A stretch of DNA of 64,000 bases from an uncultured Ectothiorhodospiraceae bacterium (GTDB lineage Bacteria; Pseudomonadota; Gammaproteobacteria; UBA9214), in contig CAMYIO010000033.1 in the NCBI GenBank assembly GCA_947258515.1, forward strand, positions 609-64,608, read 5' to 3'. Below the pieces are notes generated by a model. The model was not told where the DNA came from. It worked only from the letters and a program-made list of their open reading frames with translations, and ran no database searches. The translations under genes were made by a program, and so were the position numbers. Each line of letters starts with the position of its first letter. Position 1 is the stretch's first letter. Below are positions 16,481 through 42,721 of the stretch, in pieces.

Positions 16481-16590
16481 ATTCGCGGATGCGGTCCGCT
16501 CCTACAGGTGGCTGTAATGGGTGTAGGAACGCTCCGCGAGCGCGATCGGGGTAACTGCTGGATTCGCGGATGCGATCCGCTCTTATAGAG
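16481..16590. repeat. REP-like palindromic element cluster (type B)
   Basis: attcgcggatgcggtccgctcctacag ... tgtaggaacgctccgcgagcgcgatc ... gattcgcggatgcgatccgctcttatagag. It is the reverse complement of the tgtaggagcggaccgcgtccgcgaa motif repeated at 58262. Confidence 0.5.
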
Positions 16591-16696
16591 CCACAAAAGT
16601 ATGCTGTGATAATGCATTCAAATGATGTACATCAATTCACCACACCACCGCGGGGTTGTAAAATCCCGCTATGTATTCATCTACTGACAAACTTTC

Positions 16697-18535
16697 ATGA
16701 CAAAGCAACACAATAATACTGACACCACACGGGCCGGTGAAGCCATCATTCGGCACTGGTTTCGCCGCTCACTCGCCATCATCCTGGGCGTCGGGATTAT
16801 CGCAGCCGGCATTGTCTGGTACCTGGGGCGCGACAGCGCACCCGACATAATTATCGAAGAGGCCGTCGTCAGCGGCCCGGTCGTTGCGGCACACACACCG
16901 CAGCAAACCCCTCCGGCGGTGATCTTCAGGGATATCACGGCAGCAGCCGGTATTGAGTTTGTCCATACAAACGGCGCCTACGGTGACAAGCTCATGCCGG
17001 AGACCATCGGCAGCGGTGCGGCATTCCTCGATTACGACAATGACACTGACCAGGACCTGTTACTGGTGAATTCCAGCTGGTTCCCCGGCCATGAACAGGA
17101 GAACCTGCCAACACTGGCACTGTACCGGAACGATGGCAGCGGCCGGTTCACCGACGTCACCCGGGAAACCGGACTGGCCATCAACTGCTACGGCATGGGC
17201 GTCGCGGCCGGTGATTATGACAACGACGGCTGGACAGATCTGTATATCACGGCACTGGGTGACAATTATCTGCTCAAAAACGGGCAGGGACACTTTACCG
17301 ATGTAACGACATCCACGGGCACCGCCGGCCAGACCTCCGACTGGAGTACAGCAGCAGCCTTTCTTGATATCGACAATGACGGTGACCTGGACCTGTTTGT
17401 CGGCAACTACGTGCAGTGGTCACGCCAGATTGATCTGGAGATCGACTTTCGCCTCACCGGCGTGGGACGTTCGATTGGTGCCCCCAACCATTTTTTCGGT
17501 ACTACCAACCGGCTGTACCGTAATGAGGGTGATGGCCGTTTCAGCGATGTATCCGCATCAGCGGGCATCATGATTACTGACCCCGTCACGCATGCACCGG
17601 CAGGCAAAACGCTGTCAGTAGCCCCGGTAGATTATGACCGCGATGGCCTTATGGACCTGTTCGTAGCCAATGACACCACCCGGAACTTTCTCTATCACAA
17701 CCTCGGCAAAGGACAATTCGAGGAGATCGGCGCCCTCGAGGGTATTGCCTATGACCGCAACGGCAAGGCCACCGGTGCCATGGGCATCGACGCCGCGTAT
17801 TTCCGCAATGATGAGGACCTCGGCATCGGTATTGGCAACTTCGCCAACGAAATGAGCTCACTGTATGTCACGGCCGGCGGACAGCCGCCCTTTGCTGACG
17901 AAGCCATCCTGGAGGGTTTTGGACCGGCGTCACGCCTGGCACTGACCTTTGGACTGTTCTTCTTTGACTATGACCTTGACGGCCGGCTCGACCTGTTTCA
18001 GGCAAACGGTCACCTCGAAACAGAGATCAACCTCATGCAGTCCAGCCAGACCTATGCACAAGCCGCGCAGTTGTTCTGGAATTGCGGGTCGGCCTGCCGC
18101 AGCCGCTTTGTTACCGTCACCGACAGTGGCGATTTTGCCAATCCCATGGTCGGCCGCGGCGCCGCCTACGCGGATATCGATAGTGACGGTGACCTCGACG
18201 TGGTGGTCACCCAGAACGGCCGCCGGGCCGTACTGTTCCGCAATGACCAGTCACTCGGGCATCATTGGCTGCGGGTCCGGCTGGTAGGAGATCGCGCCAA
18301 CCGAAACGCCATTGGTGCCACAGTGGAGATATCGGTCGACGGCGTTACCCAGCGGCGGATGGTGATGCCGACACGCAGCTACCTGTCCCAGTCCGAACTG
18401 CCCGTCACCTTTGGCCTGGGTACCCGCCACTCACTGGATGAACTGCACATCACCTGGCCTGACGGCCAGCGGCAAACCGTTCCCGTGCCCGCCGTCAATG
18501 TCATGATGACCATCACCCAAAGCGACCAGCCATAG
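16697..18535 (+). CDS. CRTAC1-family protein (FG-GAP repeats + ASPIC/UnbV domain)
   Basis: Repeated DxDxDGxxD calcium-binding FG-GAP motifs (DYDNDGWTDLYIT, DIDNDGDLDLFVGN, DYDRDGLMDLFVAND, DIDSDGDLDVVV) and a C-terminal ASPIC/UnbV-like segment. N-terminal transmembrane/signal anchor. Confidence 0.8.
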   Translation: MTKQHNNTDTTRAGEAIIRHWFRRSLAIILGVGIIAAGIVWYLGRDSAPDIIIEEAVVSGPVVAAHTPQQTPPAVIFRDITAAAGIEFVHTNGAYGDKLMPETIGSGAAFLDYDNDTDQDLLLVNSSWFPGHEQENLPTLALYRNDGSGRFTDVTRETGLAINCYGMGVAAGDYDNDGWTDLYITALGDNYLLKNGQGHFTDVTTSTGTAGQTSDWSTAAAFLDIDNDGDLDLFVGNYVQWSRQIDLEIDFRLTGVGRSIGAPNHFFGTTNRLYRNEGDGRFSDVSASAGIMITDPVTHAPAGKTLSVAPVDYDRDGLMDLFVANDTTRNFLYHNLGKGQFEEIGALEGIAYDRNGKATGAMGIDAAYFRNDEDLGIGIGNFANEMSSLYVTAGGQPPFADEAILEGFGPASRLALTFGLFFFDYDLDGRLDLFQANGHLETEINLMQSSQTYAQAAQLFWNCGSACRSRFVTVTDSGDFANPMVGRGAAYADIDSDGDLDVVVTQNGRRAVLFRNDQSLGHHWLRVRLVGDRANRNAIGATVEISVDGVTQRRMVMPTRSYLSQSELPVTFGLGTRHSLDELHITWPDGQRQTVPVPAVNVMMTITQSDQP

Positions 18536-18542
18536 GTACAAC

Positions 18543-20219
18543 ATGTCATTTCTCAACAGGCTTAAACTGCTCACATTTATCACCTTGCTGCTGGCCGGTC
18601 CACCTGCCATGGCGGGCGATGCCGCATCCGCGCTGCCCGTGTCGCTGGCAGGCAGCTTGCGGGCCATCCAGGAGGTCAGGCTGGATGACCTGGATACGCA
18701 GGCCCGGGACAGTATCCAGCTGGCACGGCGACAACTCAACGAGGTGCTGCAAGCGCAACCCGTTCAGCTTGACAAGCTGGCCGCCGCCTATGGTGAGCTG
18801 GGCGGACTCTACCAGGTCCACGCTGCCTTCCCGGCTGCTGAGGATTGTTACCACAATGCCGGGCAACTGGCACCCGATGAGTTCCGCTGGGCCTACTACG
18901 CAGCCTATCTCGCCGAGAAGGACGGGCGTACCAAACTGGCCCTGGACCGCTACCGGCATGCCCTGACACTGGACACCGCCTACAAGGCCCTTACGCTGCG
19001 GCTTGGAAACATCCTGCTGGATCTCAACGAACTGGAGCAGGCGCAGACAGCGTTTCAAGAGGTTGTAAGCGCCGTCGGACTGGAGGCGGCGTCTCTATAC
19101 GGTCTCGGGCAGATTGCCCTGCTGCAGCGCGATTATGACACGGCCATTGATGCCTTTACCCGTGCCCTGCAGTACGAACCGGCCGCATCCCGCATACATT
19201 ACCCACTGGCGCAGGCACTGCGTGCAACACAGCGTAACGACGAGGCAAAAGCCCAGCTGGCACTGCGCGGTGACCAGCCACCTTCCTTCAGAGACCCGCT
19301 GATCGAGGGCCTCGAAGCACTGAAGATCGGCTCACGTTTCCAATTCCTGCAGGCCATGAAGGCTATCAAGCGGCAGGACTATGCAGCAGCCAGCGAGGCC
19401 TTTGCAGAGGGGCTGTCCGGCGATCCGGACAATGTTCAGGCCCGCATCAGTTACGCACGCACGCTGTACCTCGCAGATAAAAAGAGCGGGGCCCGGCAGG
19501 CACTGGAAGCAGCACTTGCCATGCAGCCGGACAACTCGCTGGGCCTGTTCCTGCTGGGGATACTGGCTGAAGAGACGGGTGATGCCAGCAAGGCCGCCTC
19601 TTATTACCGTCTCGCGATTCGCTACACGCCTGACCATACCGGTGCGCATCAATACCTGGCCGATCAGTATTACCGTCAGGGCAACTACACAGCAGCTGCA
19701 GAACACTATGCCAGCAGTATCAGGGGAGAACCGAGCAATCTGGCGGCGACGATCCCCTACATAGGGACGCTGCTGCTAACCGATGCGCCTGCCGCCACCT
19801 TGATGACCGAGCTTGAAACCGCAATCGATCGTTTTCCTGAATATCCCGGCTTCAAGTCCCTGCAAATACTGCTGCTGGCCGGCAGCCGTAATCCAGAGAT
19901 TCATGCCCCGGAAACGGCGCTGAAAAACGCACAGCAACTGAACGATCAGTACCGAATACCACCGCACCAGGAATTGCTGGCGCTGGCCTACGCAGCGTCT
20001 GGCGACTACCCGCAAGCGGTATCCATGCAGGAAGAGCTGCTGTCCTATGCGCACCGCGCCATGCCGGGAGAGGCGGACCGCGTGGCACAAACCCTCGCTT
20101 ACTATCAGGACAAGACACTGCCCCCGCTGGATGAGCTTCTCAATTATGCTGCATTAGAGGCACAAAGATTCAATGCCACCGCGGCGTTTCGCGATTACCC
20201 GGCACCCAGACCCTATTGA
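18543..20219 (+). CDS. TPR-repeat secreted protein
   Basis: Signal peptide MSFLNRLKLLTFITLLLAGPPAMA followed by many TPR repeats. Sits directly after the CRTAC1 gene. Confidence 0.75.
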   Translation: MSFLNRLKLLTFITLLLAGPPAMAGDAASALPVSLAGSLRAIQEVRLDDLDTQARDSIQLARRQLNEVLQAQPVQLDKLAAAYGELGGLYQVHAAFPAAEDCYHNAGQLAPDEFRWAYYAAYLAEKDGRTKLALDRYRHALTLDTAYKALTLRLGNILLDLNELEQAQTAFQEVVSAVGLEAASLYGLGQIALLQRDYDTAIDAFTRALQYEPAASRIHYPLAQALRATQRNDEAKAQLALRGDQPPSFRDPLIEGLEALKIGSRFQFLQAMKAIKRQDYAAASEAFAEGLSGDPDNVQARISYARTLYLADKKSGARQALEAALAMQPDNSLGLFLLGILAEETGDASKAASYYRLAIRYTPDHTGAHQYLADQYYRQGNYTAAAEHYASSIRGEPSNLAATIPYIGTLLLTDAPAATLMTELETAIDRFPEYPGFKSLQILLLAGSRNPEIHAPETALKNAQQLNDQYRIPPHQELLALAYAASGDYPQAVSMQEELLSYAHRAMPGEADRVAQTLAYYQDKTLPPLDELLNYAALEAQRFNATAAFRDYPAPRPY

Positions 20220-22407: not shown

Positions 22408-23521
22408 TCAGAACCATATTGAAACGAAAAGCTGCGCCACGTCGGCACCGAATTTGTACAGCGGTTCATCTCCCGCCGGTGCGCCGCTGTCGCGCAGATC
22501 GCGAAAATCATGGTAGTTGAACCAGATGTGATCATAGGACAGGTTAATACTGCCACGGTCTATCCAGCGCCAGCCATTCTGTACGAAATCATAACTCAAC
22601 GAAAACCCGAGCGTGTTGCTGTCAAAAGAGCTGAGTTCCTTGTCGCGCGCGAGAAAGTTCTGTGCATCCCTGCGCGGGAACAGGTCACTGTAAAAGTCGG
22701 CTGAATTCTGCGTGTAATAGCGGTAGTGAGCTTCAAATAACCAGCCACCGCTCAGCGGGTGTATGTAGGCAAGCTTGACGTTATGCGCCCGGATTCCCCA
22801 GGTGTCATCAAAGATCCGGTACTCTGCATAGGTTGATGCACGATAAGGTAAATAATAAAGTCCGCGCACGGCAACTGCGTTGCTGGTGCGTGTATTCGGG
22901 TAGACCTCCGGCTGATAACTGTAACCCGGAGAACTCGCAGTATCGATGTAACGCACCGAACGGTAGGGATTATTCAAATATGCTGATCACCTGCGTGAGC
23001 CCGACTGTATAATTCTGCCGGTCCACATCTTCGGAGAAGGCAGGGTCGTTATTGTTGCCAACGACATCCCAGCCACGTGCATATCCCAGTGTCACGGTGG
23101 TCATGTTGCCAAACATGTCCATGCTGATACCAAAACTGGCGGTATTGGCCGAGTAATCACTCTCCTCACTGTTGGTATAGGAGACACTCATAATCGAATT
23201 GCCATGCAGGTAGTCTGCACCCAGCGAGTATTCAGTTCGCTCTTCCGTGTAGGGACTGGCCGTGGTGACGACATCAATGGATGCGCTGCTGATGGAATCC
23301 ACGTAGTAGTTACCGCTGAGCGCAAAATTCTGCCCGACGTTTTTCAGAACCAGCACCGATGGCCCGGTGATCTCGACCCCGCCGCCATCATAGGAGTGAT
23401 ACAGCGCATCGGCACGGTCATCCGGCAACACGCCGGCCACGGTCGGCAAGCCGCTGCACAGCAGGCACAGACCCGCGAGACAGGTTTTGCGGATACTAGT
23501 TACAGCCACAGCCCCCACCAT
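22408..23521 (-). pseudogene. DUF3570-like outer-membrane protein, split by a frameshift near 22970
   Basis: Two abutting 189-aa ORFs. The N-terminal half carries the signal peptide (LAGLCLLCSGLPTVAG). The C-terminal half ends ...FVSIWF, the terminal-Phe signature of outer-membrane barrels. Together they make ~378 aa, typical of DUF3570. It sits next to the DUF4266/TlpA partners. Confidence 0.5.
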
Positions 23522-23732
23522 TACCACCTTCAGCACCACGCGCCGCCTCGCGTGCCTGGTAGACGTGAATCATGTAGGAGGATGACACCGGGTTGCGTTC
23601 GAAACGCATGATTTCATCCGCAAGGTATTCACGCTCATAGGGCTTTACCCAGGGTTCGACCATACTGCAAGCCGGCAGGTACAACACACCCAGAACGAGA
23701 ATAACTGCTTTGCGGATAGTCACTGCCGTCAT
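23496..23732 (-). CDS. DUF4266-like small lipoprotein
   Basis: 78 aa, lipobox LPAC, C-terminal Gly-rich ...GGNGGGCGCN tail. Conserved neighbour of DUF3570 and TlpA genes. Confidence 0.55.
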   Translation of the reverse strand: MTAVTIRKAVILVLGVLYLPACSMVEPWVKPYEREYLADEIMRFERNPVSSSYMIHVYQAREAARGAEGGNGGGCGCN

Positions 23733-24241
23733 TCCCTGATCAGGTCACGAACCTGTTGCTGGTAGACAGTCTCAAGTCCGGGTTTATAGCCCTTGTGCAG
23801 GTAGCGCATATTGCCATCGCGATCCACCAGCACGGTGCTGGGCATGGCAACCACGTCATATTGCTTGCTGACGACGCTGTCGCTGTCAAATACCACGGGA
23901 AAACTCACCGGCAGTTCCTCCAGCAGTTTTTTCGCCTTGCTCGAATCAGCCTCGACGTTGACACCCAGCACGGTGAATCCCAGTGCACGGTACTTGTCAT
24001 GCAGTTCGCTGAGTACCGGCATCTCCTGGCGGCAGGGGCCGCACCACGAGGCCCAGAAATTGATCAGCACAACCTCGCCGCGGTATTCACTGAGCCTGAG
24101 ATTTTCACCCGTGTTGCTCTTCAGCGTAAAGTCCGGTGCACCCGACTGCTTCATGCCGGCATATACAGCGGATGTCGCCATGATCACCGCAGCGGCCATG
24201 CCGAGCCATGATTTCATGTAATGTGCTAACTTGTTTTCCAT
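23729..24241 (-). CDS. TlpA-family periplasmic thiol:disulfide oxidoreductase
   Basis: Signal peptide and thioredoxin fold with WASWCGPC active site. Stop/start overlap with the downstream lipoprotein gene. Confidence 0.8.
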   Translation of the reverse strand: MENKLAHYMKSWLGMAAAVIMATSAVYAGMKQSGAPDFTLKSNTGENLRLSEYRGEVVLINFWASWCGPCRQEMPVLSELHDKYRALGFTVLGVNVEADSSKAKKLLEELPVSFPVVFDSDSVVSKQYDVVAMPSTVLVDRDGNMRYLHKGYKPGLETVYQQQVRDLIRE

Positions 24242-24253
24242 AATCGACTCCTG

Positions 24254-24922
24254 TTAAAAGAAGAAACTGATACCGGCGGTACCTTCCAGGTTATGTGTTG
24301 TTTTATCCTTTCCGAGCAGGTCGGATTTGAAAATGTGGTCGCGGAAGTCTAGATGCAGCGCAACCCAGTCATTCACCAGGAACCGGTAGCCGGCGCCGAC
24401 GTTGACAGTGAAATGGCTGTCATCCGCAAACTCTGTATTTCCAACGCCGGCGATCAGGTACAGGGCACTGTTAAAGGCGTGACCCTTGCCGATAAATGCC
24501 TCACCCGGCAGGATGTTGTACCCCAGCGAGAGATTGTAGTAAGTCAGTTTCCGCTGACTGTCCGTCAGCACCCGGGCACCACCACTGAGCGTCTCGTAAC
24601 TGGTGTCGCCTGCCTTTGTCCGGCCGATAGCGGCCTCGGTAAAGAAGTCCTCGGTAATGTGGTAGGCGCCGCGCGCTCCATAGACCACGTTAGTGCCGAA
24701 GTCCTCGATACTCATGACACCGACAAAAGCACCGACCTCGAAGTCCTCACTGTCGATATCAGCTTCGGAAACCGTGCGTCTTTCAAGGTCCGGGCTTATC
24801 ACCGGCGTCGTGTCATCCTGTGGTGCATCATCAACCCGCACCCAGGAGCAACCCGGCAGCAGGCTCATGAAGGCCAGTGCAAGCATTGACCTCAGAAGAA
24901 AAATGCGAAACCTGCTTTCCAT
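24254..24922 (-). CDS. outer-membrane beta-barrel lipoprotein (OmpA/OmpW-like barrel)
   Basis: Lipobox LLPGCSW, amphipathic beta strands, C-terminal ...GISFFF. Confidence 0.6.
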   Translation of the reverse strand: MESRFRIFLLRSMLALAFMSLLPGCSWVRVDDAPQDDTTPVISPDLERRTVSEADIDSEDFEVGAFVGVMSIEDFGTNVVYGARGAYHITEDFFTEAAIGRTKAGDTSYETLSGGARVLTDSQRKLTYYNLSLGYNILPGEAFIGKGHAFNSALYLIAGVGNTEFADDSHFTVNVGAGYRFLVNDWVALHLDFRDHIFKSDLLGKDKTTHNLEGTAGISFFF

Positions 24923-25665
24923 TCGTTTATCTCCTGGTTGTCGTCCTTATCCTGAAAAATGACGCTGTTCCTGTATTCGGCACGCAGCAAGAATCGACGC
25001 GTCAGATAGCAGCGGATACCCACGCCGACACTGCCGATCTGCTCGGTACGATCCAGCTCATCGACCAGCGTAACGTTCGGGTCGGTATAGATAATCCCTG
25101 TCCCCAGAGAAAAGAAAGGCGACAGACGCCACTCCGGAAACGGATGCGCGAGCAGACTGACGCGACCAACAACCGAATCCGAATAATTCCCGAACACCTG
25201 TGATACAGACAATTCTGCAGAGAAATTCGCCGTCATGGCATATCCTGCATAAGCCGTGATCATATCCGCACCTTCAAAGTCTCCGGCCAGCACCCCGGCT
25301 TCCCAGCGTCTTTTCGAGAAATCCCCGATATTTGCCTCCGCGAAGCGGGTCTGGTCACCCGCGGGGGTTAACGTCTGTTCCATTTCCGCACGCCTGACCC
25401 AGCCTTCCTTGCCTTTCCCGGTACGTACCCTGAACCAGTCGGTACGCCGCTTCAGTACGCTAATGGTCTCGCCACGATCAACCACGTGGAATACCGGGTA
25501 ACCGCGGCCGGGGCCGGTATGCATTTCCAGGTATGGCGCAGCAACAACAACCTCGACCAGTTGTTCTTCAGAAAATGCCTGTCTGGCCAGCAGGGCCTGC
25601 AACAGCAGTACAATCACGAGCACGCGTAACTGCGAAAATCCCCGGGCAACAGTGCACGCGTGCAT
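24892..25665 (-). CDS. SH3-domain + outer-membrane beta-barrel protein
   Basis: Signal peptide, a bacterial SH3-like segment (YPVFHVVDRGETISVLKRRTDWFRVRTGKGKEGWV), then a barrel ending ...GFAFFF. Confidence 0.55.
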   Translation of the reverse strand: MHACTVARGFSQLRVLVIVLLLQALLARQAFSEEQLVEVVVAAPYLEMHTGPGRGYPVFHVVDRGETISVLKRRTDWFRVRTGKGKEGWVRRAEMEQTLTPAGDQTRFAEANIGDFSKRRWEAGVLAGDFEGADMITAYAGYAMTANFSAELSVSQVFGNYSDSVVGRVSLLAHPFPEWRLSPFFSLGTGIIYTDPNVTLVDELDRTEQIGSVGVGIRCYLTRRFLLRAEYRNSVIFQDKDDNQEINEWKAGFAFFF

Positions 25666-25675
25666 ACAGTCGCTA

Positions 25676-28252
25676 TCAGTTACCGGGTACTGCGAATGGA
25701 TCGTTGTAATACTGCGCACCGATATCCAGCCATTCCGAGACAAGTCTCAGTTCGGCTGCATCAAGACGATTCTCGTGACTGCCTCCACTGTTGAACAGAT
25801 CAAAAAAACGCCAGCTTGCACGTGCACCGGCGCTCGACATGGCAGGCGCAACCGGTACACGCACCTCGGTCGGCAATCCCGTCTCGGGATCGATCGGACC
25901 GGGTACCAGGATGTCCTGCAGGCCGTTATCACCGAGTTCCTCGGCGAAGTCAGCGAACAGTAGCTCCCGATAGGAGTGGAAATGCGCGGCCTGTTCTGCG
26001 GACACACCATCGGTCAGATCGAGCTGTGCATCCGGTACCCTGTCCATGTCGGCTGCATCGAGGCTGGCATGGCATTCTGTGCAGGTGTTTACGCCACGGT
26101 CACGATTCCACAGGGGGTGTATATGCTGCTCATAATTGATCACTGTCCTGCATTGACTGTCCCAGTCCCCCTGGCAGACGGATGAGGCCGGTGCAGCGGT
26201 TGACAGGTCCGCATACAGCAGGCTGGTTGACGCATCCTTGAGGCGAGCGGCAGCCATTTCGTCGGTCCAGAGGTCGTGATATATCAGGTCAGTCGAGGGT
26301 TGCAGGGAGAGGACATCAAACCGCGCCAGGGTTTCCGCCATGGTTTCTCCGTATATCGCGGGCAAGGCAGGGTCTGTATTCGGGAATTCCATAGCGGTTG
26401 CCGGGGCACCGGCATGCACAGACTGCGCCCCCTGCGGGTGACCGTGGGGGCTGCCACCGGCATGATTATGGCAACCGTTACAGTGGACTGTTTCCCCGGC
26501 ACGCACTTGCAACCAGTTCTGGTGACGGTCGCCGATGCGCCGTCCGTCCCTGTCCACCACGCTGATGGCCAGTGGCACATCGGCCGGTACCTTGACCCGC
26601 ACGGACCCGTCCGGCTGTACCGGTGTGTAGCCGATGATCTCGCGCATCAGTTGCTGGCTACTGCGTCCAAAGGCAGTAAACGGCAGTGTGGCCACGTCGT
26701 TGTCTGGCATGGCGACGGCCTTGACGATGCGCAGGAAACGGGCAGGGCGATCAGCGGCCAGGGACTCTTTCGGGTCGGCGAGCGTGGCGATATCCGGTGC
26801 CGCGGTATCCACACCGTCGATGTCATAGACACTGCGGATATTGAGTATGCCGACACCCTCGTCAATCCACTGCAGGTCCAGCTCGATACCGGGCTGCTTG
26901 TCGAAAATGATGGATGGCAGGGCGCGTGGGGCGGTTGCCACCACATTGGTATAGGTAATGCCTTCCTGCGGGACAACCACCGGTAACTGAGTATCGGTAG
27001 ACATGTCATAGAGAAATATTCCGTACAGTGGATCGGCCTCGAGTGCATCAGGACTTTCAATCCGGCCGGCGGTGCAGGGGACAATCACGGTATCCTCCAG
27101 CAAACGGCATTCGCTCCAGCTGACCAGTACACGATCCGTACCATCCAGCAGCGGCCAGGCGCTACGGAAACGGCCACCGGGAGAGACACTGTTGTCTGTA
27201 CGGACATCATTGATCAGCAGAGCGGACTGCGCCGGTCCGGACAGTATCCCCTGGTTGTCCATTGTAGGTTCGGTGTTATCGATATAGTTTTCGATATCCA
27301 GTGAAATCAGCTCGCCGCCACGGTAGGACCCTGTAAATGGCAGCAGCAGGGCGAGCAGCCGGCCATTTTCCAATTCCCGCGGTTGCAGGAAATGCACATC
27401 AGCGTTATTGGTGCCGGTGTCATGGCTATGGGAACCGTACAGAAGCTGCAAGCCGGTCCCGTCCGGATACATCTTGTAGAGGCTTATGGCATTACGACTA
27501 CCCATGTCATCCCAGCGGCTGAAAACCACTTCTCCGGAAGAAAGCACCATCGGATCAAGATCGTGGCTCTGGTTAAACGAGACCTGCCTGATATCACTAC
27601 CGTCTGCATTCATGACATGTAACACCATGGCATGTTCGTTGAGGTTTTCATCCAGCGCGGTAAATTGTGGTTTGCCTTCGTCCAGCAGCACGGCACGCGA
27701 TGTTCTTTGACGTGACGAGGAGAATATTATGCGGCCATCCGGCAGGTAGTGTGGCGCCACATCCTGCCCGGCGGCAGCGGTAATGTCCGACGGGATGACG
27801 CGCTGCAGCTCATCGGCCTCAATCAGGTATTCCCAGATATCCCACTTCGGCTGGTCAGCCGGGGCGAGGCCGGGTATCTCGGGCGCACGCATGGCGAAGA
27901 GCAGCCGCTCGCCGTCATAGGACACTTCAACATCCTTCACATCACCCAGGCCACCGGTGAAGGATGCGGTTACATTGCGTTGCCGTGCACCCGGAGAAGC
28001 CAGATCACGGTAAAACAGGTCACCACCGGCATTGAACGTTAATGCCTCGCGAATATCCGGCTGCGTCAACACATTATTCATATCAACGATCAGAGGACGA
28101 CGCACAAAGGCAATACCGAAATCCTCGACCAGTGGATCAGGGTCCTGACCATCACCCCCGCCACATGCCTGCAATGCAACAGACAACACGCAGGCAACGC
28201 ACATGGCTGCAATCTTCCTGACGCCCTGAAAACACGCGTTGATTAGAGTCAT
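25676..28252 (-). CDS. lipoprotein with PD40/TolB-like beta-propeller repeats and two c-type heme motifs
   Basis: Lipobox LQAC. Propeller-like repeats (DGSDIRQVSF..., LYKMYPDGTGLQ...) plus HCNGCH and CTECH CXXCH motifs. The ORF opens at a TTG (28342), but an internal ATG gives a proper lipoprotein signal. Confidence 0.6.
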   Translation of the reverse strand: MTLINACFQGVRKIAAMCVACVLSVALQACGGGDGQDPDPLVEDFGIAFVRRPLIVDMNNVLTQPDIREALTFNAGGDLFYRDLASPGARQRNVTASFTGGLGDVKDVEVSYDGERLLFAMRAPEIPGLAPADQPKWDIWEYLIEADELQRVIPSDITAAAGQDVAPHYLPDGRIIFSSSRQRTSRAVLLDEGKPQFTALDENLNEHAMVLHVMNADGSDIRQVSFNQSHDLDPMVLSSGEVVFSRWDDMGSRNAISLYKMYPDGTGLQLLYGSHSHDTGTNNADVHFLQPRELENGRLLALLLPFTGSYRGGELISLDIENYIDNTEPTMDNQGILSGPAQSALLINDVRTDNSVSPGGRFRSAWPLLDGTDRVLVSWSECRLLEDTVIVPCTAGRIESPDALEADPLYGIFLYDMSTDTQLPVVVPQEGITYTNVVATAPRALPSIIFDKQPGIELDLQWIDEGVGILNIRSVYDIDGVDTAAPDIATLADPKESLAADRPARFLRIVKAVAMPDNDVATLPFTAFGRSSQQLMREIIGYTPVQPDGSVRVKVPADVPLAISVVDRDGRRIGDRHQNWLQVRAGETVHCNGCHNHAGGSPHGHPQGAQSVHAGAPATAMEFPNTDPALPAIYGETMAETLARFDVLSLQPSTDLIYHDLWTDEMAAARLKDASTSLLYADLSTAAPASSVCQGDWDSQCRTVINYEQHIHPLWNRDRGVNTCTECHASLDAADMDRVPDAQLDLTDGVSAEQAAHFHSYRELLFADFAEELGDNGLQDILVPGPIDPETGLPTEVRVPVAPAMSSAGARASWRFFDLFNSGGSHENRLDAAELRLVSEWLDIGAQYYNDPFAVPGN

Positions 28253-28510
28253 AGTAGATCCTGATGCACATATATAAGTACGCACATCCGACGTCGTTTT
28301 CCTTTGGTGATCCCTGCATCCGTAATCACACACAAAAATCAATGTGATTCAGTTCCCGCCTGTTACATAACCCGTGTCGCAGTTGAACTATAGGACAGTC
28401 GAGGAATCCTGTTCCGCGAACAGAATCACAGAAAGCCACGCCTACAAACATCAGGATTGTCAGCCACGGAGATAACGACAATTAAAAACCAATGATTGCA
28501 GGAAGTGATT

Positions 28511-29704
28511 ATGCGTCTGTCAAAACAGTCTGATTACACAACGTCTAACCACCGGATCCGCAGGGCAATCATTGTGTGCATCCTGATGTTGTTCTCTACG
28601 ACTGCTTTTGCCGATGCACTCGAACGCCGTCAGGCGAAACGCCTGCATGACAGGCTGGCCGGTATTCCGCCAGAGGAATCGGTACTTGATGACATGGAAG
28701 CCGCGTTAATGGCCGGCAATGATCTGGATGCAGCCCTTATCGCAATGGACAACAAGGCCTTCTATAACATTACCCTGAAAAATTTTGCGGCCCCATGGAG
28801 CAACCGTGAAAGGACGCTGTTTGCACCGTTGAATGACTACACCGCCACCGTCATCGGCATGATTCGCGATAAAACACCCTTCAACGAACTGCTGTCAGCC
28901 AACCTGGTATATGTCGGCGATCCGGTATTGGGACTGCCTGACTACTCAATGACCGACAACGATCATTACCAGGCGCTGGAGGACCAGGGTATTGACCTGA
29001 AGACTCACCTGCAGGCCGTCACACAGACTTCTGTCACCGACCTGCCGGTAAATGCAACGGCGGGCGTGATGACGACGCGTGCTGCAGCCGAGGCTTTTTT
29101 CGTGGCGGGAACAAACCGCGCCATGTTTCGCTTCACCTTGCTGAATCATCTCTGCAACGACATGGAGCAGGTCAAGGACAGCAGTTATTCACCTGCCCGC
29201 ATTCGCCAGGATGTCTCACGCAGTCCCGGCGGTGACAGTCGCCTGTTCCTCAACTCCTGCATCGGTTGCCACAACGGCATGGACCCGATGGCTCAGGCGT
29301 TCGCCTACTACAACTTCGATGAAACCACTCAGCGTATCCAGTACACACCCGGTTCGGTACAGCCCAAATACCATATCAATGCCGACACCTTCAAGTACGG
29401 CTACATCACAGCGGATGACCGCTGGGACAATTACTGGCGCAGTGGTCAAAACGCATTGCTGGGCTGGGACAGCAACCTGACCGGTTCCGGTTCCGGTGCC
29501 AAATCAATGGGCAGAGAACTTGCCAACAGCGAGGCATTCGCCCGTTGCCAGGTCAAGAAGGCCTTCAAGACGGTTTGTTTGCGTGATCCGGGCAACGCGG
29601 CTGACCGTAACCAGGTGGACATCACCACTGCCAGTTTCAAGGCGGACAACTACAACATGAAGACAGCGTTTGCAGAAGTTGCCGTCTACTGCATGGGCGA
29701 ATAA
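28511..29704 (+). CDS. secreted protein with one CXXCH heme motif (PSCyt/DUF1588-like?)
   Basis: Signal peptide and CIGCHNGMDP motif. AGGAAG Shine-Dalgarno. Translationally coupled to the next gene (4-nt gap). Confidence 0.55.
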   Translation: MRLSKQSDYTTSNHRIRRAIIVCILMLFSTTAFADALERRQAKRLHDRLAGIPPEESVLDDMEAALMAGNDLDAALIAMDNKAFYNITLKNFAAPWSNRERTLFAPLNDYTATVIGMIRDKTPFNELLSANLVYVGDPVLGLPDYSMTDNDHYQALEDQGIDLKTHLQAVTQTSVTDLPVNATAGVMTTRAAAEAFFVAGTNRAMFRFTLLNHLCNDMEQVKDSSYSPARIRQDVSRSPGGDSRLFLNSCIGCHNGMDPMAQAFAYYNFDETTQRIQYTPGSVQPKYHINADTFKYGYITADDRWDNYWRSGQNALLGWDSNLTGSGSGAKSMGRELANSEAFARCQVKKAFKTVCLRDPGNAADRNQVDITTASFKADNYNMKTAFAEVAVYCMGE

Positions 29705-29707: not shown

Positions 29708-32200
29708 ATGAACTACATCATAAATTCCATCATGCATCTCGTCCTGCATCGATACGGGGCAGTGTTGCTTGCCAGCGCCATGCTTTCCGCCTGTGGCGGT
29801 GAAAGCACGACTGAAAATCCGCAGACATTTACCACCATGACGTCCAGTTATTCCGGCCCGGCAGCAACGACGGCCGATGTACAGGCATTCAGGCTGAATG
29901 TCTGGGAGAACCTCAATAGACAGAATCGTTGTGGTGCCTGCCACGGTAGCGGCGGTCAGTCACCCACATTCGTACGCATGGATGACGTCAACCTCGCCTA
30001 TGCCGAGGCGAACAGCATCGTTGACCTCGCCAACCCGGCCAGTTCACGCATGGTAACCAAGGTAGCAGGCGGTCATAACTGCTGGCTGGACAGTGACAGT
30101 GCCTGTGGTGATGTCATCACGGCCTATATCACCGCCTGGGCCGGTGGGGTCGCCGGTGGCGGAAATATTATTGAACTCGTTGCACCCCCGCTGCGAGACC
30201 CGGGTGACAGCAAAAGTTTTCCCGACGACTCGGGCCTGTTCGCCACTACCGTGCATCCCTTGCTAACGGCTCATTGTGCCAGCTGCCATGTGGATTCGGC
30301 CGCCAATGCACAGTCTCCCTTCTTTGCGGACAGTGACGCGGACACAGCCTACGAGGCCGCCAAACCCAGGATTGACCTGGATAATCCCGCGAACTCACGT
30401 TTCGTGCTGCGGCTGCGTGAAGAATTTCATAATTGCTGGACATCTAACTGCCTGAATGACGCTGACACCATGGAAGCAGCCATCGCCGCCTTCGCTGCAC
30501 AAATCCCGGTGACGCAAATCGATTCACAGCTTGTCACCAGCAAGGCCCTGACATTACCCGACGGTATCGTTGCCAGTGGTGGTAGCCGCCATGAACAGAA
30601 TGTCATCGCGCTGTACCAGTTTAAAACCGGGCAGGGAAACACCGCGTTCGACACCAGTGGCGTCGAACCGGGCATGCACCTGACACTGAGCGGCAACACC
30701 GGCTGGGTGGGTGGCTGGGGACTCGATATCACCAATGGCAGGGCGCAGGCCTCGACGACAACCAGCCGCAAGCTGCATGAACTGATTACCGCCACCGGTG
30801 AATACACCATTGAAGCCTGGGTGGTAGCAGCCAACGTCACCCAGGAAGGTCCGGCACGCATTATCAGTTACTCAGCCGGAACCACTGTGCGTAATTTCAC
30901 CCTCGGGCAAACGCAGTACAACTACAATTTCCTGCAGCGCAACACCAACACGGACCCCAATGGTGATCCCGCACTGTCTACTGCTGATGCCGATGAAGAC
31001 CTGCAGGCGACGCAACAGCATGTCGTGGCAACCTATGACCCGGTAAGGGGCCGCCGTATTTACGTGAATGGCATCTTTACCGGTGACAGTGACCCGGTTG
31101 CCGGCGGCAGCCTGATTGACTGGGATGACAGTTTTGCCTTCCTGCTGGGTAACGAGGTCTCCGGTGACCGCCAGTGGCAGGGCCGGTTGCGGCTGGTAGC
31201 CATCCATAACCGTGTCCTCACCAATGCACAAATCATGCAGAACTTTGAAGCAGGTGTTGGTGAGAAATTCTTTTTACTGTTTAACGTCAGTGATCATAGC
31301 GGCATTGCGGACTCCTATGTCATGTTACAGGTCAGCCAGTTCGACAACTACAGCTATCTGTTCAATGACCCGTTATTCATCATCCTCGATGCCGATGCCA
31401 CGCCAGACAATATCCCGGTGGCGGGCATGCGCATCGGAATCAACGGCAAGGAGGCGAGCGTCGGTCAGGCCTATCAGCATCTGGATACCACTCTCAGCAG
31501 TGCACAGTATCAACCCGGCATGGGCCAGAAACTGTCCGTACTGGGGACCATTATTGCACTGGAAAAAGGTCCTGAATCAGACGAATTCTTTCTAACCTTC
31601 GAGGTGTTTGGAAACAGTACCCATGTTGTACTTGAGCCACAGCCACTGCAGCCCGGCACACCGCCCGATCTGCCGGAAGCCGCAGATGTCGGACTGCGTA
31701 ATTTTGACGAGATCAATGCCACTATGGCCACCATTACCCGCGTCAGTCCTGAACAGGAAGATGTAGACGATGTATTCGAAACCGTCAGGCAACAGCTGCC
31801 CACCGTTGAAAATATCGAGGGGTTTCTCTCGGCACACCAGATGGCAGTCTCGCAAATGGCCATCGAATACTGCAACGCGCTGGTAGATAACAACGGCAAC
31901 GTGCTGCGCACGGACTATTTTCCGCAGTTTGATTTCAACGAGACGGCAGACAATGCCTTTAATACAGCCGCCCAACGTGACAAGGTCATCCTGCCACTGC
32001 TCAACAGGGTAATGAATACCGGGTTAACAACACAGCCCGACCCCGCACAGGTCATCAGCGAACTTGACGACCTGATACTCATCCTGACTGCCTGCGCCAA
32101 TGGTCCTTCGCCGGGTTGCGCGACAGTGACACGTACGCGGGAAGTCGTGAAGGCGACCTGTGCCGCCATGCTTGGCAGTGCCGCCATGCTGATTCAATAG
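29708..32200 (+). CDS. lipoprotein with two repeated CXXCH-containing domains and a LamG/concanavalin-like domain
   Basis: Lipobox LSAC. A ~100-aa module occurs twice (CGACHG...SPTF...NPASSRMV...HNCW and CASCHV...SPFF...NPANSRFV...HNCW), followed by a LamG-like region. Confidence 0.6.
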   Translation: MNYIINSIMHLVLHRYGAVLLASAMLSACGGESTTENPQTFTTMTSSYSGPAATTADVQAFRLNVWENLNRQNRCGACHGSGGQSPTFVRMDDVNLAYAEANSIVDLANPASSRMVTKVAGGHNCWLDSDSACGDVITAYITAWAGGVAGGGNIIELVAPPLRDPGDSKSFPDDSGLFATTVHPLLTAHCASCHVDSAANAQSPFFADSDADTAYEAAKPRIDLDNPANSRFVLRLREEFHNCWTSNCLNDADTMEAAIAAFAAQIPVTQIDSQLVTSKALTLPDGIVASGGSRHEQNVIALYQFKTGQGNTAFDTSGVEPGMHLTLSGNTGWVGGWGLDITNGRAQASTTTSRKLHELITATGEYTIEAWVVAANVTQEGPARIISYSAGTTVRNFTLGQTQYNYNFLQRNTNTDPNGDPALSTADADEDLQATQQHVVATYDPVRGRRIYVNGIFTGDSDPVAGGSLIDWDDSFAFLLGNEVSGDRQWQGRLRLVAIHNRVLTNAQIMQNFEAGVGEKFFLLFNVSDHSGIADSYVMLQVSQFDNYSYLFNDPLFIILDADATPDNIPVAGMRIGINGKEASVGQAYQHLDTTLSSAQYQPGMGQKLSVLGTIIALEKGPESDEFFLTFEVFGNSTHVVLEPQPLQPGTPPDLPEAADVGLRNFDEINATMATITRVSPEQEDVDDVFETVRQQLPTVENIEGFLSAHQMAVSQMAIEYCNALVDNNGNVLRTDYFPQFDFNETADNAFNTAAQRDKVILPLLNRVMNTGLTTQPDPAQVISELDDLILILTACANGPSPGCATVTRTREVVKATCAAMLGSAAMLIQ

Positions 32201-32220
32201 AACACTACCGGGAGTATTGC

Positions 32221-33819
32221 ATGGCCAGAAAATCCAACCACCGTCGACTGAATGAACCCCTGCGCCTGAATGATCATGGCCGCCCGATCAGCCGCCGTGA
32301 CTTGCTGGGGCAGGGGCTTCTTTCAGGGCTTGGCCTCGTGACCGCACCGACGTTCTTCGGCCTGTTCGCCAATCCGCGCAGGGCCGCCGCGGACCTGTCC
32401 CCGGATCTGGAGGCGTTGAAGACCAGCTGCGGCATCAAGTCCCTCGGCGCCGGTAAAATTCCGTTTATCTGTTTTGACCTGGCCGGGGGTGCGAATATCG
32501 CAGGCTCCAACGTACTGGTCGGGAAACAGGACGGGCAACTGGATTCCCTGAGCACCGCCGGTTACAGCAAACTGGGGTTACCGGGTGACATGACACCGGA
32601 CTCGATAAATCCGCTGACAGGCAACAGTTTCATTAACACGGACTTCGGGCTCGGCTTTCATGCCAGCAGTGCGATGCTGCAGGGCATTCAGGAAAAGGCG
32701 CTGGGCCGCAGCACTGAAATCAATGGTGCCGTGATCCCCGCGCGCTCGGATAACGACACCGCTAACAACCCGCACAATCCCATGTATGGCATCGCGCGTG
32801 CCGGTGCAGATGGCAGCCTGTTGTCTCTGATCGGCTCCAGGAGTTCCGACTCCGGCGGAAACTCCATGGCACCGGCCATGCTGATTGATCCCTCGATCCG
32901 TCCCACCAAGGTTGACCGTCCGTCCGATGTCACGGGCATGGTGGATACCGGCCAGTTGATCGGCGTGCTCAGCCAGGATGACGCGGTTGCCGTGATGGAG
33001 TCCATCGAACGCATCAGCCGGATGAAACTCGACCAGGTCGATACCCGGGTCACGGCGGATGCCATAGTCAAGGACCTGGTGCAATGTGGCTATGTGAAGG
33101 CGGCAGACATTGCCGACCGTTTTGGTGACCCGACCACGCTTGATCCGGCGCTCGATCCTGACATTGTCGGGCCTGGCGGGATATTCGATCAGACCGAATT
33201 CAACAATGACAGCGAGTTTCGCAAAACCGCTTCCGTCATGAAAATGGTCATCAATGGTTTTGCCGGTGCCGGAACAATCACCCTGGGTGGCTATGATTAC
33301 CACACCGGCGATCGCGCCAGCGGTGAATTGCGCGATCTGCGTGCCGGGCGCTGCATCGGCGCCTGTCTGGAGTATGCTGCACGCGCCAACAATGGCAACG
33401 GTGTACCTTTGATGGTCTACGTATTCAGTGATGGTTCCGTATTCAGCAACGGCATGACAGATGACACCCAGACGGGTGGCGGCAAGGGCGTCTGGACCGG
33501 TGATAACTCTTCAACCGCCGCGTCATTCTTTCTTGTCTACAATCCAGGATCAAGGCCACAATTGCTCGGCGCAGACATGGTTGAACGGGCCGTACACCAG
33601 CAGCTGGGGCATTTCCGCAGTGACGGTTCTGTAGAAACCAATGCCACACCGGCCGCCAACCAGGTCAACCTGCTGGTCGAGACCGTGATACTGAATTACA
33701 TGGTACTGCATGGCGAGCAGGCTAACTTCACGAGCCTGTTCCCGAACCATGGCCTCGGTAATGCTGCACTCATGGACAAACTGACCGCGTTCAATCCCAT
33801 TGTTTCCGGGACGATATAG
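32221..33819 (+). CDS. twin-arginine (TAT) signal protein, DUF1552/DUF1501-like partner of the CXXCH proteins
   Basis: Tat motif SRRDLLGQGLLSGLGL. GGGAG Shine-Dalgarno before ATG 32221. The longer ORF upstream (32116) overlaps the previous gene. Confidence 0.55.
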   Translation: MARKSNHRRLNEPLRLNDHGRPISRRDLLGQGLLSGLGLVTAPTFFGLFANPRRAAADLSPDLEALKTSCGIKSLGAGKIPFICFDLAGGANIAGSNVLVGKQDGQLDSLSTAGYSKLGLPGDMTPDSINPLTGNSFINTDFGLGFHASSAMLQGIQEKALGRSTEINGAVIPARSDNDTANNPHNPMYGIARAGADGSLLSLIGSRSSDSGGNSMAPAMLIDPSIRPTKVDRPSDVTGMVDTGQLIGVLSQDDAVAVMESIERISRMKLDQVDTRVTADAIVKDLVQCGYVKAADIADRFGDPTTLDPALDPDIVGPGGIFDQTEFNNDSEFRKTASVMKMVINGFAGAGTITLGGYDYHTGDRASGELRDLRAGRCIGACLEYAARANNGNGVPLMVYVFSDGSVFSNGMTDDTQTGGGKGVWTGDNSSTAASFFLVYNPGSRPQLLGADMVERAVHQQLGHFRSDGSVETNATPAANQVNLLVETVILNYMVLHGEQANFTSLFPNHGLGNAALMDKLTAFNPIVSGTI

Positions 33820-33824: not shown

Positions 33825-34853
33825 ATGACCCACCCGCACAGTCTCATGCCATCCAGGCCCCACACGATTAACAATCGGGCACGTCATGTACGCCTTTTAA
33901 TACTGTCCATACTGATGCTATTGCCACTCGATGCCAGCGCCGGCTGGATCCGCCAGGAAGCCGCCATCATGGGCACGGCCATCAATGTTGAACTCTGGCA
34001 TGAAGACGCTGCACAGGGCAGGGCCCTGACACAGGCGGTACTGGACGAAATGCATCGCATCGACAATTTGATGAGTACCTACAAGCCTGACAGCGAGCTG
34101 TCCTTAATCAATGCCAATGCCGCCGACGGACCGGTTACCGTCAGCACGGAACTGTTGTCTCTGATCATACGCGCGCTGGATTACTCTGTAATTACGGCTG
34201 GCGCCTTTGATATCACCTATGCCAGTGCAGGACAGTACTATGATTACCGGAACGCTAAAAAACCCAGCGACAGGCAACTCGAGCAGGCATTGCCTGCCAT
34301 CAATTACCGTCACGTAAAGATTGACCCGCAAAGCTCCAGCATTGAATTCATGCGCCAGGGTGTACGCATAGACCTTGGCGGCATAGCAAAGGGCTATGCC
34401 GTTGATCGCAGCATGGAAATACTGCGAAGTGGCGGCGTCGAAAATGCCATTGTCAGTGCCGGTGGTGATTCGCGCGTCATCGGTAAGCGCCGGGACAGGC
34501 CCTGGAATGTCGGCATCCGCCATCCTCGCAACAAGGACAGTATCGTCTCGATGATTCCGCTGGAAAATTCAGCCATCTCCACCTCCGGTGATTATGAACG
34601 CTATTTTGAAGAGGGCGGTGTGCGCTACCATCACATCCTCAACCCGGGCACGGGCACTTCGTCTCACGAGGTACACAGTTCCAGTATTATCGGGGCAGTG
34701 GCGACGGATACGGATGCACTGTCTACCAGTGTGTTTGTACTCGGCGTCAATGACGGTCTGCAGTTAATCAATTCCATACCTGATACCGAGGCCGTCATTA
34801 TCGACAACCAGGGACGTATGCATTATTCCACCGGTCTCGCACAGCTCCAGTAA
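33825..34853 (+). CDS. apbE: FAD:protein FMN transferase (ApbE family)
   Basis: Signal peptide and ApbE motifs (FDITYASAGQYYDY, IDLGGIAKGYAVD, ISTSGDYERYFE...RYHHILNP). Confidence 0.85.
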   Translation: MTHPHSLMPSRPHTINNRARHVRLLILSILMLLPLDASAGWIRQEAAIMGTAINVELWHEDAAQGRALTQAVLDEMHRIDNLMSTYKPDSELSLINANAADGPVTVSTELLSLIIRALDYSVITAGAFDITYASAGQYYDYRNAKKPSDRQLEQALPAINYRHVKIDPQSSSIEFMRQGVRIDLGGIAKGYAVDRSMEILRSGGVENAIVSAGGDSRVIGKRRDRPWNVGIRHPRNKDSIVSMIPLENSAISTSGDYERYFEEGGVRYHHILNPGTGTSSHEVHSSSIIGAVATDTDALSTSVFVLGVNDGLQLINSIPDTEAVIIDNQGRMHYSTGLAQLQ

Positions 34854-35083: not shown

Positions 35084-35638
35084 ATGTCCCTGAAATGCCA
35101 TTTTCCTGTTCCGTTCCGTTTCTGGATAGTACTGCTGATATTCTGCACTACCACAGTCGCCGCAGAGCCGGCCGCACAAACAGCCGGCACGACGGCAAGT
35201 CTCGATGAAGAAATCCAGTCCCTGAAGCAAGACGTGCTGGCGCTCAACCGGGAACTGTTCATCCTTGAAGAAGAACTGCTGTACCCTGCAAACACCCAGG
35301 TCGCGGTGTTTCTGTCTCTCGACATCGGCGAGTTTTTCAGCCTTGACTCGGTACAACTGAAGATCGACGACAATGTGGTCAGCAACTATCTCTATACGCA
35401 ACGCGAGGTAGACGCCCTGCACCAGGGCGGTGTCCAGCGCCTCTACATGGGCAACCTTAAGGCCGGTGAACACGAGCTGGTTGCCATCTTCACGGGCCAG
35501 GGACCCAATGGCCGGGAATACCGTCGTGGCGCCAACCATATCATCACCAAGACACTCGGGGCCCGATTCATTGAACTGAAAATTGTCGATAACGACAGCA
35601 GCGAGCAGCCTGATTTCAGCATCAGGGAATGGGAATAA
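35084..35638 (+). CDS. periplasmic coiled-coil protein (first gene of the Exb/TPR cluster)
   Basis: Signal anchor, coiled-coil segment (EEIQSLKQDVLALNRELFILEEELL), then a beta-rich domain. GGAGG Shine-Dalgarno. Confidence 0.5.
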   Translation: MSLKCHFPVPFRFWIVLLIFCTTTVAAEPAAQTAGTTASLDEEIQSLKQDVLALNRELFILEEELLYPANTQVAVFLSLDIGEFFSLDSVQLKIDDNVVSNYLYTQREVDALHQGGVQRLYMGNLKAGEHELVAIFTGQGPNGREYRRGANHIITKTLGARFIELKIVDNDSSEQPDFSIREWE

Positions 35639-37515: not shown

Positions 37516-38276
37516 AGCCCGTACTGCCTGTCATGGTGATGATGGCCGCCCTGTCAAGCGCCTGCTCAGTGCTGCACGGGGACAATGAGCCTACCATCGC
37601 GAGCCTCGGCAAACGCCCGGTAAAACTCGAGGACACACCGGTGTCAGCCAGTGAAGTGCAGGCGATCTCGGCCTACCGGTCCTTTCTTGACAGCGGTGAT
37701 GAATCGGATTCACGCCCGCACGCGATGCGCCGCATTGCCGACCTGAACCTGGAAAAAGAGGAACTGCCGCAAGCCGGGCAGACTACCCCGGACACCCCGT
37801 CGCTGCAGCCAATAGAGGCGCGCGAATCCATCGAACTGTACCAGAGCGTACTGTCACTCTATCCACAGCGCGCGGACAACGACTCGGTGCTCTATCAACT
37901 CGCACGCGCCTACGAGATGGATGGCCAGCCGCGACAATCGCTCGACACGCTGGCAACCCTCGTACAACACTACCCGCAGAGTCAATATGTGCTGGAAGCA
38001 CAGTTCAGGCGTGGCGAGATCCTGTTCGAGCAACGCGACTACGATAACGCAGAGCAGGCCTACCGCGCCGTGGTCAGCAGTGGCCCGGATAATTCGTTCT
38101 ACCGGCAATCGCTATACAAGAGCGGCTGGTGTTTTTTCAAGCTGTCAGAGCTGGATGAATCACTGGATGCCTTCATGGCACTCCTCGATCTGGAGCTGCA
38201 GGATACCGAAGCGGGTATTGCGCAACTCGATCAGCTGAGCCGTCCGCGGCGCGAACTGGCGCGAACTGGTGGATGA
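37512..38276 (+). CDS. TPR lipoprotein, 5' fragment of a split ~935-aa TPR gene (GltD/AgmU-like)
   Basis: Lipobox LSSACS. The frame ends 8 nt after the tandem 10-bp duplication gcgcgaactg/gcgcgaactg at 38249-38268. Removing one copy fuses it in frame to the next ORF. Confidence 0.6.
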   Translation: MKPVLPVMVMMAALSSACSVLHGDNEPTIASLGKRPVKLEDTPVSASEVQAISAYRSFLDSGDESDSRPHAMRRIADLNLEKEELPQAGQTTPDTPSLQPIEARESIELYQSVLSLYPQRADNDSVLYQLARAYEMDGQPRQSLDTLATLVQHYPQSQYVLEAQFRRGEILFEQRDYDNAEQAYRAVVSSGPDNSFYRQSLYKSGWCFFKLSELDESLDAFMALLDLELQDTEAGIAQLDQLSRPRRELARTGG

Positions 38277-42719: not shown

Positions 42720-42721
42720 TC

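Follow-up and report, generated by a model that had tools for sequence, protein, structure and literature searches.

A gammaproteobacterial di-haem lipoprotein related to hydrazine synthase alpha, and its conserved gene neighbourhood

We analysed a 64,000-nucleotide stretch of DNA from an uncultured Ectothiorhodospiraceae bacterium (contig CAMYIO010000033.1 of assembly GCA_947258515.1, hereafter the window) and focused on the minus-strand gene at positions 25676–28252, which an earlier note made from the sequence had described as encoding a lipoprotein that fuses a TolB-like beta-propeller to two c-type haem motifs. We find that its 858-amino acid (aa) product is a distant, full-length homologue of HzsA, the alpha subunit of hydrazine synthase (HZS), and that it belongs to a large family in which both haem sites are kept and the features specific to hydrazine synthesis are lost or replaced. 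The reading that we consider most likely, and in which we have reasonable though not strong confidence, is that the protein serves as a haem oxidoreductase or electron hub of an outer-membrane-associated redox machine in the cell envelope.

Assignment to the HZS_alpha / HzsA-related family is near certain. The single above-threshold Pfam match is to PF18582 HZS_alpha, the middle domain of hydrazine synthase alpha (52.9 bits, E 5.4e-14, with a gathering threshold of 26.6 bits), and it spans residues 528–596 (26465–26671, minus strand). When a profile of the family was compared with all PDB sequences, the sole match was hydrazine synthase alpha (5c2v_A), recovered in four colinear pieces that together reach from the propeller through the middle domain to the C-terminus. 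An AlphaFold2 (AF2) model built with 65 homologues as input had a predicted local distance difference test score (pLDDT) of 89.0 and a predicted template modelling score of 0.86, and a Foldseek search with this model against the PDB placed chains A and D of 5c2v on top (E 1.8e-28, template modelling scores 0.56/0.62, 920 columns over the full length, 15% identity). The next matches were sixteen orders of magnitude weaker and covered propellers only, namely TolB (4r40_A, E 9e-12) and those of S9 peptidases. As reference HzsA we used a Kuenenia-type sequence of 809 aa from metagenome contigs that is 100% identical to the 61-aa 5c2v_A fragment; authentic HzsB and HzsC sequences were likewise taken from metagenome contigs. 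Alignment of the family profile to this HzsA with hhalign gave a probability of 99.7% (E 2.6e-25, 691 columns, 23% identity), and a local alignment to HzsA agreed with this result. Collectively, the profile, Foldseek and hhalign results therefore identify the protein as a distant (15–23% identity), full-length homologue of HzsA.

The comparison with HzsA (kuste2861; PDB 5C2V chain A) revealed the same three-domain order across the whole length, so the layout is not a new fusion, and the view that the protein has no obvious family gives way both to the Pfam match and to the name 'HzsA-related protein' used by NCBI and UniRef. The proteins so named in Hahella, Aliikangiella, Aliiglaciecola and Paraglaciecola align with it end to end at ~46–51% identity. 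It is thus a further member of a named, uncharacterised family and is ordinary within that family. The structure prediction and Foldseek comparison that the earlier note proposed bear out the propeller and return hydrazine synthase alpha as the full-length match. The suggested likeness to hydrazine-handling enzymes stands insofar as hydrazine synthase alpha is the only solved structure to match the whole protein, and fails for the features specific to hydrazine synthesis that are described below. The NCBIfam equivalog model for hydrazine synthase alpha (NF052339, hydrazine_alpha) scored 40.9 bits against a cutoff of 800, with a match limited to residues 536–596. The TolB model TIGR02800 scored 17.8 bits against a cutoff of 343, and the likeness to TolB is one of propeller fold only; TolB is no lipoprotein and lacks haem domains. 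A kinship with cytochrome cd1, which had also been raised, found no backing: no cd1 or NirS entry was matched in Pfam, in NCBIfam or among the top 50 Foldseek matches to the PDB, and cytochrome cd1 has an eight-bladed haem d1 propeller whereas the strand count here fits six blades.

The gene is intact, running on the minus strand from an ATG at 28252 to a stop codon at 25676–25678, with an AGGA Shine-Dalgarno-like motif 6 nt 5' of the ATG and the same start position in homologues. For measures of conservation we used 133 representatives of 50%-identity clusters, which are 37–56% identical to the window protein. Residues 1–30 (28163–28252) form a signal peptide of basic and hydrophobic character that ends in the lipobox L-Q-A-C30, and Cys30 is retained in 127 of the 133 representatives; by sequence the protein is therefore a bacterial lipoprotein, as had been claimed. 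A Gly-rich tether (GGGDGQDPDP) follows directly after Cys30, and residues 28–39 have pLDDT values below 50, consistent with a flexible tether. The TolB/PD40-like propeller occupies residues ~45–440 (26933–28120), in the N-terminal half of the protein rather than in the middle where the earlier note had put it; secondary structure assignment of the model with DSSP counted ~24 strands, from which six blades can be deduced. Foldseek pairs the domain with the propellers of TolB and S9 peptidases, and the HMMER and hhalign matches to the HzsA propeller are colinear. It contains a conserved cysteine pair, C382/C393. The middle domain with haem I covers residues ~466–660 (26273–26857) according to Pfam, HMMER and hhalign and includes a D548-G549-S550 motif that is 100% conserved. 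The C-terminal haem II domain (residues 661–858; 25679–26272) aligns by hhalign with HzsA residues ~660–804 and holds a second conserved cysteine pair, C693/C701.

Both haem attachment sites of HzsA, whose residue numbers here follow Dietl 2015 as cited in PMC12758564, have counterparts. The haem I motif C591-N-G-C594-H595 (26468–26482) aligns with C583/C586/H587 of haem alpha-I and is kept throughout the family (C591 in 132, G593 in 131, C594 in 132 and H595 in 128 of the 133 representatives); H590, the first histidine of the 'HCNGCH' string, is not conserved among them. The haem II motif C724-T-E-C727-H728 (26069–26083) aligns with C685/C688/H689 of haem alpha-II, with C724 retained in 131 of 133 and C727 and H728 in all. 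His826 (25775–25777), placed by both HMMER and hhalign, corresponds to HzsA His772, the distal ligand of the bis-His haem alpha-II, and is present in 125 of 133 (94%). When the protein was shuffled 200,000 times with its composition preserved, two or more CXXCH motifs arose at a frequency of 5e-6. The two motifs singled out by the earlier note are thus genuine family features, with CXXCH residues conserved at 96–100%, and the check on distal ligands that it recommended comes out positive for haem II. DGS and EWxDxGAQ motifs are likewise common to HzsA and the window protein. In HZS, haem alpha-II is low-spin and of low potential (PMC12607021) and bis-His-ligated (PMC12758564), and the active site is proposed to lie at haem alpha-I (PMC12607021).

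The surroundings of haem I differ from those in HzsA in two respects. Tyr591 of HzsA, the proximal ligand in its CH-x3-Y motif, is lost: no tyrosine occurs at residues 596–612 (NHAGGSPHGHPQGAQSV), and in the family alignment tyrosine is not among the six commonest residues at any position from 596 to 607. The zinc ligand beside haem alpha-I, Cys303, is replaced by a histidine, since H275 aligns with it in an H275-S-H277 propeller loop (27422–27430; YGSHSH against YGNCDG of HzsA in hhalign). This loop is invariant in close homologues, and in the wider family H275 is found in 83 and H277 in 86 of the 133 representatives; Cys303 itself is not universal even among anammox bacteria (PMC12758564). 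Compared with HzsA, the family adds the two cysteine pairs and a conserved His603 (26444–26446), which lies in the family motif CxGCH-x(4-7)-P-H-G within the loop that holds the Tyr591 ligand in HzsA; H603 and G604 are each present in 123 of 133 (92%). High conservation also marks the interface between the propeller and the middle domain, where H212 (99%), W137 (100%) and the YG-x-H-S-H loop are located. Together, His275, His277, His597 and His603 may form a second, His-rich metal site next to haem I, in the place that the zinc site has in HZS; these four positions displayed no clear pattern of co-variation in the family alignment.

HzsA homologues outside anammox bacteria have been described before. 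Hagglund et al. 2025 (PMC12758564) report HzsA-like clades I–IV in non-anammox Planctomycetota, Desulfobacterota and other groups, and these resemble the window protein in keeping the haem alpha-I motif while lacking Tyr591 and Cys303, for which a canonical His-ligated haem is predicted there. By contrast, clades I–IV adjoin a gene for a fused HzsBC homologue and often an FG-GAP/CRTAC1 gene (PMC12758564), whereas the family studied here has no HzsBC neighbour and a different, fixed neighbourhood, and clade I is without His772, the equivalent of which our family keeps. That study confined its analysis to HzsA homologues adjoining HzsBC homologues, and gammaproteobacterial matches appear only in a supplementary BLAST table. 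HzsA itself is a soluble protein of the anammoxosome that works with HzsB and HzsC partners in anammox bacteria, unlike the protein described here, which is predicted to be lipid-anchored, comes without these partners and resides in Gammaproteobacteria.

The family is large and is found in bacteria of the sea and of sediments. Relatives number more than 4,600 at 90% clustering, with full-length homologues 60–96% identical to the window protein, and fall into 3,887 clusters at 50% identity, 553 of these below E 1e-30; relatives occur in at least 582 GTDB species. The closest relatives come from uncultured Gammaproteobacteria, and the wider family extends to Woeseiaceae, Steroidobacteraceae, Sedimenticolaceae, Ca. 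Thiodiazotropha and other symbionts, and Kangiellaceae. Cultured carriers include Hahella, Aliikangiella, Aliiglaciecola, Paraglaciecola, Neptunicella and Porticoccus. Hahella and Aliiglaciecola are aerobic heterotrophs, and Woeseiaceae, Sedimenticolaceae and Ca. Thiodiazotropha are denitrifiers or sulfur oxidisers. Two loci with relatives 54–57% identical to the window protein are titled 'Halobacteria archaeon' and 'Bifidobacteriaceae' and are probably mis-binned or mislabelled contigs of metagenome-assembled genomes (MAGs).

Gene context was counted in 47 species-level loci, each with at least 20 kb of sequence, using flanks of +/-10 kb, so that distal links are underestimated. The next gene of the operon (24892–25743, minus strand) encodes an SH3_3 domain joined to an outer-membrane barrel (OMP_b-brl) by Pfam, has its likely start just 3' of the stop codon of the HzsA-related gene and is adjacent to it in all 47 loci. 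It is followed on the same strand by an outer-membrane beta-barrel of family TIGR04565 OMP_myx_plus (24254–24922; 185 bits against a cutoff of 60; 46 of 47 loci), a periplasmic TlpA/ResA-like thiol-disulfide oxidoreductase with a WCGPC motif (23729–24241; 31 of 47), a small DUF4266 lipoprotein with the lipobox LPAC and a C-terminal CGC motif (23496–23732; 46 of 47) and, by Pfam, the ApbE flavinylation substrate DUF3570 (22408–23539; 46 of 47). The DUF3570 gene is split here into two ORFs (open reading frames) by a frameshift near 22982, and the closest relative has a single intact ORF of 402 aa.

Three plus-strand genes lie divergently on the other side of the HzsA-related gene. The first (28496–29704) encodes a secreted protein of ~400 aa (402 in the window) with one CXXCH, at C251/C254/H255 in alignment numbering, and a weakly PSD2/DUF1585-like C-terminus; the second (29708–32200) encodes a lipoprotein of 830 aa with the lipobox LSAC, two CXXCH motifs and a LamG domain (Laminin_G_3). 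The earlier note had already remarked on this divergent CXXCH operon, and its placement is kept in all 47 species. The haem motifs of both putative cytochromes are invariant in orthologues. The third gene (32218–33819; 46 of 47 loci) encodes a protein of ~530 aa with the twin-arginine motif SRRDLL, predicted to be exported by the twin-arginine translocation (Tat) pathway. Searches with profiles of the three divergent neighbours gave no relatives of solved structure, and the Tat-exported protein was without a Pfam, NCBIfam or PDB relative, with no Pfam match even at E 5 when 23 orthologues were used; a single-sequence AF2 model of it had a pLDDT of 33. It has the invariant motifs FDLAGGAN and GGYDYHTG and is an uncharacterised, possible catalytic partner. 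A resemblance to DUF1501/DUF1552 among the divergent neighbours was not confirmed. A scan of the divergent intergenic region for a promoter and a terminator found neither.

The next plus-strand gene encodes an ApbE FAD:protein FMN transferase (33825–34853; Pfam E 1.6e-84), which is found within 10 kb in 14 of 47 loci and adjoins the cluster in Hahella too. Hahella aquimaris and an Aliiglaciecola-type contig share this order of the cluster. Meheust et al. 2021 (PMC8238504) showed that ApbE flavinylates DUF3570, which together with thioredoxin-like and DUF4266 proteins makes up a module, so far uncharacterised, for extracytosolic electron transfer. All four genes of this module are present in the cluster of the window, and the HzsA-related protein itself is no member of it. 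In the accessible text of PMC8238504 the module occurs on its own or alongside DsbD, and neither cytochromes nor HzsA-related proteins are brought up in connection with it. A reduced form of the cluster occurs in CP070821.1, a complete 2.6-Mb gammaproteobacterial MAG, in which the SH3 protein is without a barrel and a Toluene_X/FadL-type porin is added; a cytochrome P460 gene (positions 621–1136 of that locus) lies ~9 kb from the HzsA-related gene of this genome.

Beyond ApbE, the window contains a plus-strand block (35084–44242) that corresponds in the order and lengths of its genes to the Agl/Glt 'core complex' of Table S3 in PMC3169522; this correspondence holds over 35629–44242. It encodes, in order, a 184-aa protein, a gltC-like tetratricopeptide repeat (TPR) protein of 628 aa, a gltD-like TPR protein of ~937 aa, a gltE-like TPR protein of 202 aa, a 112-aa protein, a TolQ/AglR-like protein, two TolR/ExbD-like proteins and a GltG-like TonB-family protein of 336 aa that passes the AgmX/PglI C-terminal domain model. 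The first genes of the block adjoin the HzsA-related cluster in 24 of 47 loci (51%); the block stands directly after ApbE in the window and after DUF3570 in the Hahella and Aliiglaciecola-type loci. The core complex (gltC, gltD, gltE, aglR, aglQ, aglS and gltG) has been described in Gammaproteobacteria including Hahella, with function unknown (Luciano et al. 2011, PMC3169522), and the words cytochromes and thioredoxins do not occur in the main text of that paper. The HzsA-related protein is no Glt protein, and the block is context only.

We favour a role as haem oxidoreductase or electron hub, in which the protein would be a lipid-anchored, periplasm-facing di-haem c-type cytochrome made up of the propeller, the haem I domain and the haem II domain, probably sent to the outer membrane, as the Gly at +2 suggests. 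Haem II may be bis-His-ligated by His728 and His826 and transfer electrons, by analogy with HZS. Electrons would pass between haem II and haem I (Cys591/Cys594/His595), any direction assigned to this flow being putative, and haem I, located between propeller and middle domain, is a candidate site for the binding or conversion of a small molecule. That this substrate is a small oxidant or an N-oxide-type molecule is only a guess. Its partners at the inner face of the outer membrane would be the two cytochromes encoded nearby, the Tat protein and the flavin/thiol relay. The envelope set so proposed would comprise two more putative c-type cytochromes, the Tat protein, two barrels (one with SH3) and a thioredoxin/DUF4266/DUF3570/ApbE relay, often joined by the TolQR-like Agl/Glt complex. 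Several points weigh against this role. The links to ApbE (14 of 47 loci), the redoxin (31 of 47) and the Glt-like block (24 of 47) are weaker than those within the core set (46–47 of 47); gene clustering is no proof of a physical complex; and the protein may only carry electrons or serve as a scaffold, without being an enzyme.

This last point leads to the alternative that survives best, which we nevertheless regard as unlikely: the protein may be a non-catalytic electron shuttle or TolB-like scaffold, its propeller docking partners such as the barrels or the Glt/Tol-like machinery and its haems wiring the cytochromes to flavinylated DUF3570. The propeller is indeed TolB-like, the six-bladed PD40-type propeller of TolB being the best structural match outside HZS, and the gene lies near TolQ/TolR/YbgF-like genes as well: the adjoining block, whose products include TolQ/TolR/YbgF-like proteins and a TonB protein of the GltG type, resembles Tol-Pal as well as Agl-Glt (PMC3169522). 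The SH3-bearing barrel is always adjacent, and haem I has a canonical His595 with the conserved His603 as candidate sixth ligand, as would suit a simple electron carrier. Set against this, the HZS counterpart of haem I is the proposed active site (PMC12607021), and the conservation at the interface (H212, W137 and YG-x-H-S-H) suggests a pocket and not a simple wire. There is also no other recognisable catalytic subunit in the cluster, barring the unclassifiable Tat protein.

Less probable still is that the protein is an enzyme acting on nitric oxide, hydroxylamine or peroxide, in which an ancestral HzsA-type haem I chemistry operates without hydrazine formation. Homology to the subunit of HZS for which hydroxylamine handling has been proposed (PMC12607021) speaks for it, as does the cytochrome P460 gene of CP070821, although that neighbour is a single case and no nitrogen-cycle gene is conserved near the HzsA-related gene across the 47 loci. 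The ligands of haem I are unlike those of HzsA, with no Tyr591 and a histidine for Cys303. The denitrifiers or sulfur oxidisers among the carriers (Woeseiaceae, Sedimenticolaceae and Ca. Thiodiazotropha) would also fit such an enzyme, but the family is equally common in genera of aerobic heterotrophs that are not known to denitrify.

That the protein is a genuine hydrazine synthase alpha, or forms N–N bonds in a cryptic anammox-like pathway, is effectively refuted: what speaks for it is limited to the common fold, the pair of haem sites and the counterpart of His772, against which stand the 40.9 bits on a model with an 800-bit cutoff, an identity to HzsA of only 15% (Foldseek) or 23% (hhalign), the absent Tyr591 equivalent and the exchange of Cys303 for His, close relatives in aerobes such as Hahella and Aliiglaciecola, no HzsB or HzsC match by tblastn (E<=0.01) within the 64 kb of the window or among 85 loci of the family, and conserved neighbours that are unrelated to HzsB and HzsC, with hhalign probabilities of at most 8% against their profiles.

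Hydrazine synthase was long thought to be without relatives, and its origin is still debated. The family described here is a branch of HzsA relatives that far exceeds in size the small number studied to date; in it both haem sites and the distal histidine of haem II are kept, and it includes cultured members of Hahella and Aliiglaciecola in which genetics should be feasible. Its neighbourhood joins three sets that have been listed separately as of unknown function, namely the HzsA-related proteins, the DUF3570 module and, in about half of the species, the Agl/Glt core complex; this link is not mentioned in the accessible texts of PMC12758564, PMC8238504 and PMC3169522 and may be new. A bolder proposal, which we consider doubtful at present, is that the protein is the haem head of an unrecognised envelope-spanning redox machine that unites the HzsA-related/cytochrome/Tat set, the DUF3570-DUF4266-thioredoxin relay and the Agl/Glt core complex driven by the proton motive force. 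The putative His-rich metal site next to haem I may form a further part of it. If true, this proposal would give the ancestral core complex of the gliding motor a redox role and offer, in culturable bacteria, a model of what preceded hydrazine synthase alpha.

Further observations concern other genes of the window. Those at 13727–20219 (plus strand) encode a c554/MtrC-like multihaem cytochrome of 917 aa with fused TPR repeats, a CRTAC1-type protein with FG-GAP/ASPIC and a TPR protein of 558 aa, and they were considered as partners of the HzsA-related protein because FG-GAP genes flank other HzsA homologues; we rejected them, since they accompany it in only 1–4 of 47 loci. An XrtA/PEP-CTERM system-associated ATPase-like gene (11492–13483, plus strand; 282.6 bits against a cutoff of 324.5) lies 5' of the multihaem cytochrome gene. 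Within the Agl/Glt-like block, the gltD-like gene (37512–40320, plus strand) is split into ORFs of 254 and 683 aa that overlap at 38269–38276, which resembles a one-base indel, and the TolQ/AglR-like gene (41573–42198, plus strand) appears to be frameshifted near 41660, its N-terminus (MDAYTTIVGFFQSGGLFMYPIVL) and its MotA_ExbB domain being in different frames. Together with the DUF3570 gene, this makes three broken genes within 20 kb, which suggests that indel errors from long-read assembly, and not decay, are the cause, and the HzsA-related gene among them is intact.

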